In this document: positions 469-2,145 of the stretch, piece by piece
Layout of the letters: the number at the start of each line of letters is the position of its first letter
Position numbering within the stretch: position 1 is the first letter of the stretch
Assembly (NCBI GenBank): GCA_027031765.1
Contig: JALVPN010000067.1
Coordinates: 35,978 to 41,083, forward strand
Length of the DNA: 5,106 bases
Source: Promethearchaeota archaeon
GTDB lineage: Archaea > Asgardarchaeota > Thorarchaeia > Thorarchaeales > Thorarchaeaceae
Direction of reading: 5' to 3'
The notes under the pieces: model-generated
Database searches by the model: none
What the model saw: only the letters and a program-made list of their open reading frames with translations
Told to the model about the DNA's origin: nothing
Made by a program: the position numbers and the translations under genes

Positions 469-2145
469 TCACTTCTCAATCATTCCCGTGATGAGGCCAC
501 GGGTGATGGCAATATAGTAGTCCACCATGTCAGCTACGGCCTTCGTCTTGACAATCTTGACACGGATGTCGTTCTCTTCAAGGACCTCAACACACCTCTC
601 GGCAATCACTTGGAGTGGCTCTTCGGTGAACACTTTGAGGAACTCGCCCCTCTGGAGGACGAACTGGACACCCTCGACGCCCTCAAGTATCTTCATTGCC
701 CGGGGGTCGACCTCTTCAAGGACTATCCCGACGGCAAAGCCCCTGTTGGGCATGGATGCCTTGAGGTTCGCGGGACTGCCAAAGGCGACGAGGCTCTTGC
801 CCCGCATGAACACCGCCACCTTGTCACAGAACTCTGCCTCGGCCGGGTAGTGGGTTATCACAATGATGGAGGTGCCGTACTCTTGGTTGATGGTGTCTAG
901 ATACGACCACAACTCGTACCTGTTGTCCGGGTCGAGGCCGCTGGTCGGCTCGTCGAGTAGCAGCACCTTTGGCATATGGGCGAGGGCCACAGCAATGGAC
1001 ACTCGCCTCTGCTGACCGCCGCTGAGCGAGCGCACCGGACTGTTGCCCTTCTCGAGGATGCCAAAGTCACGCAGTAGCATCTTCCCACGCTGGATGAGCT
1101 GCCACTCAGGGATGTCATAGTTCTTGCCGAAGGCAATTATGTTCTCAAGTGGAGTGAACGTGTCATACAGGTAGCTCAGGTCCTGTGGGCAGTAGCCAAA
1201 GAAGTGCCGGACCTTCGTCGTCTCCTTGGAGTCAATGCCTGCTATGCGGGCCACGCCCCTGCTGGGGATGTCACCTATGAGGGCTTTTACTGTGGTGGAC
1301 TTGCCAGCACCACTCTCGCCGATGATTGCCAGCATCTCACCCTCCTTGAGCGCGAAGGACACGTTCTCAATGATCTTCTTCCCACCCCGGACCGTCACCG
1401 TCAGGTTGCGCACTTCGACGACGTTCCTGTAGGCGGTCTCCAGCTTCCATGCCGACGGCTGGATGTATACCTTGTCTGCAATTATCGTCAGGTTCGGGTT
1501 GGTACGTGGGCCGACCAGGAGCTGCGGCTGCACCACGGTGAAGATCATCGGGTCACTGCTCGGGCCTTCTGGCTCCACACGTACCTCAAGGACTCCTTCG
1601 GGCAGGATTGGAGCAGGCATGGTATGCGAGCTCACCAGTGTGCCGGAGATCATGATAGGCAGTCTGTCGGAGTAGCGCTTGCCCCACACCATGCAGCGGA
1701 TAGCGAAGCTCTGCTTCATCTTCTCGGTGTCCTTGACCGCCTGTTGCAGGTCGCGTCCGTCATAGTACAGGTCGTCATACAGGTCCCTCTTGAGGTAGTT
1801 CTGCATGGTTATCTGGGTGAGCGCAACGTCCTCCTGAGTGGCCCCCTCGCCACCGACTGTCAGGACGAGGTCGAGCTCGCTCTTCCTGCGTTTGCGGAGG
1901 TCTTCCTCCACCAGTACGGCAATCCGGCGTGTGAGCATGCCCTTCTTGACACGCAACACCCGGCCCCTGAAGCGTACGTTCTCCTTTGTCTTCGTGAGGA
2001 CACCCTGCACATCGCAGTGGAGCTCGCGGTCTTGCCTCTCAAGGGCCCAGTCAATGGCCTCTGCCAAGTGGGCGCCTGAGAAGTATGCCTCCTCAATGAA
2101 GGAGGGACGACCCTCATCGGTCTCGGGTGCAGCTCGTATCGCCAT
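469..2145 (-). CDS. ABC transporter ATP-binding protein (DrrA/ABC-2 exporter type) with an N-terminal tandem TrmB-C-like extension and a small C-terminal alpha/beta domain, 558 aa
   Basis: Complete canonical motif set: Walker A GESGAGKST (aa 276-284, nt 1294-1320), Q-loop GYCPQD, signature LSGGQ (nt 1012-1026), Walker B/D-loop VLLLDEPTSGLDP and H-loop IIVITH. The nucleotide-binding domain begins only at about aa 242 (VVEVRNLTV). A Shine-Dalgarno AGGTGA lies 9 nt upstream of the ATG. Confidence 0.95.
   Translation of the reverse strand: MAIRAAPETDEGRPSFIEEAYFSGAHLAEAIDWALERQDRELHCDVQGVLTKTKENVRFRGRVLRVKKGMLTRRIAVLVEEDLRKRRKSELDLVLTVGGEGATQEDVALTQITMQNYLKRDLYDDLYYDGRDLQQAVKDTEKMKQSFAIRCMVWGKRYSDRLPIMISGTLVSSHTMPAPILPEGVLEVRVEPEGPSSDPMIFTVVQPQLLVGPRTNPNLTIIADKVYIQPSAWKLETAYRNVVEVRNLTVTVRGGKKIIENVSFALKEGEMLAIIGESGAGKSTTVKALIGDIPSRGVARIAGIDSKETTKVRHFFGYCPQDLSYLYDTFTPLENIIAFGKNYDIPEWQLIQRGKMLLRDFGILEKGNSPVRSLSGGQQRRVSIAVALAHMPKVLLLDEPTSGLDPDNRYELWSYLDTINQEYGTSIIVITHYPAEAEFCDKVAVFMRGKSLVAFGSPANLKASMPNRGFAVGIVLEEVDPRAMKILEGVEGVQFVLQRGEFLKVFTEEPLQVIAERCVEVLEENDIRVKIVKTKAVADMVDYYIAITRGLITGMIEK
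1462..2085 (-). repeat. Protein-level tandem duplication in the ATPase N-terminus: repeat 1 aa 21-114 (nt 1804-2085), repeat 2 aa 127-228 (nt 1462-1767)
   Basis: Collinear matches between the repeats: YFSGAHLAEAI/YYDGRDLQQAV, CDVQG/CMVWG, VRFRGRVL/IMISGTLV, IAVLVEE/LEVRVEP, LVLTVGG/MIFTVVQ, VALTQITM/IIADKVYI. Confidence 0.7.

Follow-up and report, generated by a model that had tools for sequence, protein, structure and literature searches.

The window analyzed here, a stretch of 5,106 nucleotides (nt) from contig JALVPN010000067.1 of a Promethearchaeota archaeon of the order Thorarchaeales, encodes an ATP-binding cassette (ABC) ATPase, P0001, in front of whose motor lies an N-terminal extension of 240 amino acids (aa). 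As judged from profile comparisons and structural models, this extension is a tandem duplication of the barrel-shaped C-terminal subdomain from the effector-binding domain of the archaeal regulator TrmB. The P0001 barrel and TrmB of Pyrococcus furiosus (PDB entries 2F5T and 3QPH) have a common fold, sequence homology, conserved glycines, and the V-G-G-x-x-A-x-x-E-D loop. Only TrmB has a winged-helix DNA-binding domain, a coiled coil, and an N-terminal eight-stranded subdomain with a sugar-recognition helix, whereas P0001 has two such barrels in a row, joined to an ABC ATPase. Because two defining parts of TrmB are absent, P0001 is an ABC-2 ATPase with homologs of one TrmB subdomain and not a TrmB regulator.

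Tandem TrmB-type barrels on an ABC-2 ATPase

The homology of the first barrel (module 1) to the C-terminal subdomain of the TrmB effector-binding domain is solid. The Pfam family PF11495 (Regulator_TrmB) matches aa 25-115 of P0001 with positions 151-231 of its 233 (E = 2.6e-8, 33.9 bits, with a gathering cut-off of 22.2 bits), and five distant relatives, 26-42% identical in this region, each independently exceed the same cut-off. An AlphaFold2 model of aa 12-124, built on a 49-row alignment, has a predicted local distance difference test score (pLDDT) of 87.6 and a predicted template-modeling score (pTM) of 0.81. The Foldseek search of the PDB with this model retrieved full TrmB (3qph_A, E = 1.3e-5, template-modeling score TM 0.69) and the TrmB sugar-binding domain (2f5t_X, E = 1.2e-4), everything else being above 0.02. 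A VIA-align search of 48,161 representative chains, independent of Foldseek, gave the same two structures: 3qph_A (Z = 15.6, root-mean-square deviation 1.5 Å, 92 residues, 21% identity, TrmB residues 248-342) and 2f5t_X (Z = 14.4). The next fold was the Pelota N-domain (Z = 7.3); Sm, LSm, and WYL barrels scored lower still (Z 5-6). In the ESM Atlas, the shapes nearest to module 1, its own cluster aside, all belong to TrmB regulators (TM 0.68-0.75).

These results bear out the initial annotation, which had proposed a TrmB-C-type domain at aa 21-114 and had suggested a fold search with aa 15-120 as the check; TrmB is indeed the top match. The underlying coordinates (nt 1804-2085 for aa 21-114 and nt 1828-1857 for the loop VGGEGATQED, V97-D106) and the translation were confirmed on the minus-strand open reading frame (ORF).

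A common small β-barrel might resemble TrmB by chance or by convergence, leaving the extension unrelated to that regulator, and several sequence searches could be taken to say so. In the PDB sequences, TrmB was recovered neither by phmmer with aa 1-245 (the best matches were noise, e.g., uL3 and a designed repeat) nor by hmmsearch with a profile built from 36 sequences of the full extension (again with noise as best matches), and the module 1 profile alone missed it. The hhalign comparison of the module 1 profile with one TrmB homolog yielded a probability of just 21%. Separately, the ESM Atlas was queried by features with aa 1-245, and no usable match came back. Against chance similarity stand the six independent family members above the curated PF11495 cut-off, the drop in Z-score from TrmB to the next fold, the identity over the structurally aligned residues, and an ungapped match of the ten-residue loop motif. 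In addition, TrmB was reached in the PDB sequences by the profile of the second barrel (module 2) and by a stacked two-module profile only, and with the latter it was the top match (E = 0.009). Chance or convergence is therefore highly improbable as an explanation and close to refuted.

The other parts of TrmB are missing, and the initial annotation was correct in stating that P0001 has neither a helix-turn-helix nor the N-terminal (PLD-like) subdomain. The match to PF11495 is limited to the positions given above; positions 1-150, which correspond to the N-subdomain with the sugar-recognition helix Eα3, are unmatched in P0001, and the adjoining region is a second C-type barrel. The Pfam scan of P0001 gave no winged-helix match (PF01978), and just 13-24 residues precede the barrel. 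As to the family itself, a newer Pfam version labels PF11495.15 as ‘TrmB_EBD_N’, and the version searched here, PF11495.14, is named ‘Regulator_TrmB’ and has 233 positions covering the whole effector domain; PF11495 may have been redefined, and future annotation of these ATPases could shift.

The duplication is visible in a structural model of aa 1-245 (pLDDT 74), in which a strand, a helix, and five strands occur twice in this order. The profiles of the two modules align in hhalign over 98 columns (probability 98.6%, E = 1e-15); BLASTP of one module against the other gives no match, and the duplication is thus detectable at the profile level only. In the two-module model, VIA-align places aa 123-235 onto TrmB residues 247-342 (Z = 13.8), and the best PDB sequence matches of the module 2 profile are 2f5t and 3qph (E = 0.04-0.07). 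In distant lineages, module 2 carries the motif (T/K)-(V/I)-G-G ... (E)-D-(V/I)-x-A-x-K, and in the distant homolog P0133 the PF11495 match falls on module 2. In the Thorarchaeota clade that includes the window, the GG...ED loop of module 2 is replaced by VVQPQ...NLT. Across about 115 orthologs, mean column conservation is 0.80 in module 1, 0.83 in module 2, and 0.91 in the nucleotide-binding domain (NBD), with 60-79% identity in the extension, which points to purifying selection on it. Since module 2 has lost the loop and yet is at least as conserved as module 1, it has changed its role and has not decayed. The initial annotation thus located a TrmB-type barrel correctly at aa 21-114 and counted one barrel where the extension contains two. 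The prediction of a dimer from two copies of aa 1-245 scored 0.00, which is no answer and speaks neither for nor against dimerization. In two distant homologs, P0137 and P0138, approximately 50 residues are inserted after the second strand of barrel 1, ahead of the strand that follows; the ABC domain is retained in P0138.

The extension is followed, after a linker of just a few residues, by the first strand of the NBD. Pfam ABC_tran (PF00005) matches aa 260-402 of P0001 (E = 3e-28), and TIGR01188 (drrA) matches aa 257-547 (E = 3e-53) at 181 bits, below the subfamily cut-off of 312; P0001 is thus DrrA-like by its domain layout and lies outside the DrrA subfamily proper. These matches bear out the proposal that the TrmB-type domain is fused to the N-terminus of an ABC-2 ATPase resembling DrrA. 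In its last 88 aa, P0001 aligns with the plain tail of DrrA-type proteins, and this region also aligns with a second ATPase of the gene cluster described below. The catalytic motifs (Walker A GESGAGKST, Q321, the signature LSGGQQ, Walker B ending in DE, and H432) are all invariant in 115 orthologs, and because of this invariance P0001 is predicted to be a working ATPase. The approximately 150 homologs of P0001 are 540-590 aa long. Within the family there is no variation at Y239 and W233, located in the linker and where barrel 2 ends. By eye, the tripeptide (T/K)-(I/V)-(K/R) at aa 251-253 (window positions about 1387-1395, minus strand) seems to stand where many ABC ATPases have an aromatic A-loop residue; the second ATPase has Phe or Tyr near this position.

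Conservation of the TrmB-type loop

In TrmB, the C-subdomain consists of strand Eβ9, helix Eα4, and an irregular flattened β-barrel, in agreement with the secondary structure of the P0001 models; maltose and sucrose are contacted by its residues Asn305, Gly320, Met321, Val324, Ile325, and Glu326 and by Ser229 of the other subdomain (PMC4158304). Of these contacts, just Gly320 and Glu326 are conserved in the related regulators TrmBL1, Tgr, and MalR, and the characterized ligands of the effector domain family are all sugars (PMC4158304). With TrmB numbering read by aligning a 70%-identical Thermococci homolog to 3qph, the hhalign alignment of the module 1 profile with the Thermococci TrmB homolog places V97-D106 onto the TrmB loop V318-G-G-M-F-A-V-I-E-D327 without a gap. 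The equivalent residues are G99 for Gly320, E100 for Met321, T103 for Val324, Q104 for Ile325, and E105 for Glu326. The initial annotation had ascribed most of the sugar contacts to this loop, and five of the seven published TrmB contacts do lie within V318-D327. In P0001, three of these five differ (E, T, and Q for M, V, and I), and the two contacts that the family conserves have their counterparts in G99 and E105.

Loop conservation was scored in 115 full-length orthologs. Three positions are invariant: T96 (TrmB K317), G98 (G319), and D106 (D327). The contact equivalents vary: G99 is Gly in 79 orthologs (69%) and Ser in 34 (30%), Q104 is Gln in 95, and E105 is Glu in 48 (42%), Gln in 38 (33%), and Asp in 23 (20%). 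A102, the equivalent of A323, is Ala in 17 only (15%). Position 105 is never hydrophobic in the Thorarchaeota set. In a set of 16 widely diverged sequences, 13 have Glu at position 105 and 15 have Asp at position 106, and the ED pair together with T-x-G is retained even in lineages with just 25-30% identity. The loop is thus under selection, yet it is no fixed copy of the TrmB pocket. In the initial annotation, a loop not conserved in orthologs was to speak against the proposal. The outcome counts in part against it, with G98 and D106 retained throughout and with A102, G99, and E105 variable, the last one mostly among Glu, Gln, and Asp.

Gene layout, neighborhood, and distribution

The minus strand of the window is a run of three genes, encoding the permease P0002, the ATPase P0001, and the start of P0004 (Table 1). 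The permease is identified by Pfam matches to ABC2_membrane_3 (E = 6e-25) and ABC2_membrane (E = 7e-14). Its stop codon lies 13 nt ahead of the P0001 ATG and is overlapped by a Shine-Dalgarno-like GGTGAG at 2154-2159. P0004 was identified by tblastn with a 1458-aa homolog from locus L006 and by the Pfam families of this homolog and of a distant one. Compared with the intact 1458-aa homolog, this S8-subtilase/GldG-like gene is split over two frames, with tblastn passing from frame -2 to frame -3 at L009:13968-13979 on contig C67, just to the left of window position 1; possible causes of the split are a frameshift, misassembly, or decay into a pseudogene. Two plus-strand ORFs, 1204-2079 and 1838-2227, were rejected as genes and taken as shadow frames, the region being accounted for by conservation of the minus-strand protein in more than 100 genomes.

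Table 1. Features of the 5,106-nt window; positions are counted from its first nucleotide
Feature	Position	Strand	Protein	Remarks
ABC ATPase gene P0001	469..2145	-	558 aa	ATG at 2145, stop at 469-471; from the ORF list and translation
P0001 layout, N to C terminus				Short disordered N-terminus, TrmB-C-type barrel 1, barrel 2, nucleotide-binding domain, DrrA-type C-terminal domain
Module 1	1780..2106	-	aa 14-122	Strand, helix, and β-barrel; homolog of TrmB residues 248-342
Loop V97-G-G-E-G-A-T-Q-E-D106	1828..1857	-	aa 97-106	Counterpart of TrmB V318-D327
Module 2	1432..1779	-	aa 123-238	Diverged second copy of the barrel
Nucleotide-binding domain	736..1425	-	aa 241-470	Pfam and NCBIfam matches
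C-terminal domain	472..735	-	aa 471-558	DrrA-like ABC-2 ATPase type
ABC-2 permease P0002	2159..3349	-	396 aa	Pfam; directly upstream of P0001, same strand
Start of P0004, downstream gene	1..432	-		N-terminal part of a large membrane protein, S8-subtilase/GldG-like (GIFT/DUF4350), that belongs to the conserved cluster
P0003	3516-5106	+		Divergently transcribed

The association of these genes is conserved. In all of 14 loci from about eight Asgard families, the fused ATPase adjoins an ABC-2 permease and has near it a second ATPase paralog of approximately 330 aa without the extension. Distant lineages have ATPase1, permease, and ATPase2 in this order on one strand. Most of the 14 loci also contain a 1400-1460-aa protein with a subtilase domain and weak matches to GldG, ABC_transp_aux, and IFT52-GIFT. 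On the contig of the window, the second ABC ATPase (332 aa, L009:9056-10054, minus strand) lies approximately 3.9 kb beyond the window start; its canonical motifs are intact, it is 36% identical to the P0001 NBD, and it has no N-terminal extension. In this respect the initial annotation was incomplete, since the transporter has a second ATPase without a TrmB-type domain.

The divergently transcribed P0003 has no Pfam match. A 761-aa homolog of P0003 resembles (α/α)6 glycoside hydrolases (Bac_rhamnosid6H, MGH1-like_GH, and GDE_C, with ESM feature scores of 0.96-0.97). P0003 homologs adjoin the transporter only within the window's own family, and this likeness hints at a carbohydrate context only weakly and within one lineage.

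Named homologs of P0001 come nearly all from Candidatus Thorarchaeota, with a few labeled Loki-, Odin-, Hod-, or Promethearchaeota. The extension matches just 16 clusters in a library of 1.84 billion representatives. Within the phylum, a match is found in 121 of 400 genomes. The family of the window accounts for many of these (80 of 85 genomes, nearly always in a single copy), and four further Asgard families have matches in 17/19, 5/5, 6/6, and 3/3 genomes; with this query, two large families have none (0/135 and 0/31).

Other occurrences of TrmB-like domains were encountered in these searches. In one Asgard family, the module 1 query matches free-standing ORFs of approximately 160 aa without a Pfam match (L016:4281-4769, minus strand, in G299:C53; also in genomes G298 and G300), which adjoin genes for prephenate dehydratase and a HAD hydrolase and may be stand-alone TrmB-C-type barrels. 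The PF11495 profile search of the source genome, which is 95% complete, found no canonical full TrmB effector domain. Its other signals there are below threshold and cover the N-subdomain only (G000:C29:3749-4138 and G000:C143:22762-23115); one of the two has a TGA in frame, and the other is part of an ORF of 1099 aa. An ESM Atlas cluster of 743-aa archaeal proteins combines a TrmB helix-turn-helix, a TrmB effector domain, and a ketohexokinase-like domain (Khk), another unusual fusion of a sugar sensor.

Possible function, precedents, and significance

Accessory domains on ABC ATPases are a familiar arrangement. The importer ATPases MalK and ModC (TOBE), MetN (C2/NIL), and OpuAA (CBS) have fused domains that bind ligands or proteins and regulate closure of the ATPase dimer, and those of MalK, MetN, and OpuA modulate ATP hydrolysis. 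They are C-terminal, belong to importers, and have other folds, whereas the extension of P0001 is N-terminal and belongs to an ABC-2 system; the Pfam scan of P0001 gave no TOBE, NIL, or CBS match. The nearest functional precedent is Wzt of the Wzm/Wzt O-antigen exporter, the carbohydrate-binding domain of which is a β-sandwich with a fold unrelated to the TrmB barrel. That domain is C-terminal and binds the capped terminus of the cargo, whereas the one in P0001 is N-terminal and TrmB-C/Sm-like, and the permease type and the gene context differ as well. In Wzt, the carbohydrate-binding accessory domain is cytoplasmic, affects ATP hydrolysis by the ABC-2 exporter ATPase on which it resides, and binds the polysaccharide terminus (PMC9445017). 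Thus, the architecture, for which the initial annotation knew no precedent, is less unprecedented as a concept than stated there.

Another comparison is provided by the gliding-associated GldA, GldF, and GldG of Bacteroidota, which, like the P0001 cluster, comprise an ABC-2 ATPase, a permease, and an auxiliary membrane protein; the GldG/GIFT-type domain of the latter has a weakly matching counterpart in the subtilase-like protein of the P0001 cluster. P0001 matches TIGR03522 (GldA) with E = 1e-31 and 110 bits, below the cut-off of 403. In a distant lineage, the subtilase-like neighbor scores 26.3 for ABC_transp_aux (cut-off 34.7) and 22.4 for IFT52_GIFT (cut-off 27.2), in both cases below the cut-off. 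The P0001 cluster differs in having two ATPases, one of them TrmB-extended, and in having the GldG-like domain embedded in a 1400-aa subtilase-like protein.

We propose that the N-terminal extension could be a cytoplasmic ligand-sensing module. Barrel 1 would bind a small carbohydrate-type ligand through the T-V-G-G...E-D loop, and barrel 2 would stand in for the TrmB N-subdomain, closing the other side of the pocket or serving as a coupling element. Ligand occupancy would alter closure of the ATPase against its partner, probably the second ATPase, so that the two would form an asymmetric pair with one sensing subunit, and ATP turnover, hence transport, would follow the metabolite level. The proposal draws on the homology to TrmB, on the exclusively sugar ligands of its family, and on the modulation of hydrolysis by accessory domains of ABC ATPases, as well as on the duplication, the register and conservation of the loop, the intact catalytic motifs, and the conserved gene linkage, with the likeness of the P0003 homolog as a weak hint. 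That the extension is a ligand-sensing regulatory module seems to us somewhat probable. A sugar as its ligand is doubtful and constitutes the weakest step of the proposal. Sugar gating of the exporter, as suggested in the initial annotation, is plausible.

Several observations weigh against this proposal. The counterpart of TrmB Asn305 could not be placed in P0001. Among the orthologs, the equivalent of Glu326 is not fixed, that of Gly320 is often Ser, and A102 is rarely kept, while the invariant G98 and D106 correspond to residues absent from the listed TrmB contacts and may be structural. The TrmB sugar sits in a cleft between the C-subdomain and helix Eα3 (Ser229) of the N-subdomain (PMC4158304). 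The N-subdomain, and with it the second wall of the sugar pocket, is absent from P0001, and because the TrmB ligand is held between two subdomains, P0001 lacks one half of the pocket, which would need to come from barrel 2 or from the NBD. The fold is Sm-like, and its more remote structural relatives include the WYL and LSm barrels found by VIA-align. WYL and LSm domains bind nucleic acids. Finally, the asymmetric heterodimer with one sensing subunit is suggested by gene linkage alone.

Some of these observations fit readings in which the barrels are no allosteric sensor. They might form a protein-protein or structural module without a small-molecule ligand, by which ATPase1 would dock with the second ATPase or with the cytoplasmic tails of the cluster's membrane proteins, and the loop motif would shape a hairpin. 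Such a module would explain why G98 and D106, the equivalents of residues that are not among the listed TrmB contacts, are invariant while contact equivalents vary, why module 2 is as conserved as module 1 without the loop, and why the second wall of the TrmB pocket could be dispensed with. However, Glu prevails at position 105 in widely diverged sequences, this position avoids hydrophobic residues in the Thorarchaeota set, and in distant lineages the loop occurs in both barrels, which argues for selection on the loop itself; we regard a purely docking role as unlikely. Alternatively, the barrels might recognize the substrate, binding the glycan of a lipid- or protein-linked cargo on the cytoplasmic side, selecting it, and coupling its presence to hydrolysis in the manner of Wzt, where one carbohydrate-binding domain both recognizes the polysaccharide terminus and modulates hydrolysis (PMC9445017). 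The sole known ligands of TrmB barrels are glycosyl units, and the large surface proteins encoded in the cluster might carry glycans. Nevertheless, the Wzt domain is placed at the other end of the ATPase and differs in fold, the 14-20 kb examined showed no gene for a glycosyltransferase or a lipid carrier, and the permease, an ABC2_membrane_3-type protein whose outer loop is large and whose partner is GldG-like, is not Wzm-like. Cargo recognition, too, is an improbable explanation.

A more far-reaching variant retains the sensor and abandons export. ATPase1 as a sensor, ATPase2 as a plain motor, and one permease might constitute an asymmetric, Asgard-specific ABC-2 machine that exports no solute and signals mechanically like MacB, FtsEX, or LolCDE, relaying a cytoplasmic carbohydrate or metabolite signal to the extracellular subtilase/GldG-IFT52-GIFT-like protein and to the giant calcium-repeat surface protein. 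We consider this quite unlikely; if true, cell-surface remodeling or adhesion would be tied to sugar status.

Public databases already contain automatic PF11495 and ABC_tran annotation for these proteins, and the literature search yielded no paper describing a TrmB-type domain on an ABC ATPase in Asgard, the related results being haloarchaeal regulator papers only. The architecture is thus unstudied rather than undetected. It belongs to a known kind, the fusion of a sensor or carbohydrate-binding domain to an ABC ATPase, including that of an ABC-2 exporter (Wzt). As far as could be searched, the TrmB-type fold, its tandem form, its N-terminal position, and the Asgard lineage are new.

In summary, the sugar-binding barrel of TrmB can occur outside the regulator, in duplicated form, as an accessory domain on the motor of a transporter, and the short list of sensor fusions to ABC ATPases gains a new fold, an N-terminal position, an ABC-2 exporter-type system, and a new lineage. 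With its ligand identified, P0001 would offer a simple and testable case for metabolite control of an ABC-2 transporter. Its gene is near-universal and single-copy in Thorarchaeota-type genomes and lies in a conserved cluster with a GldG/IFT52-GIFT-like protein; therefore, the identity of the ligand would provide a handle on an unexplained and apparently important envelope system of Asgard archaea.

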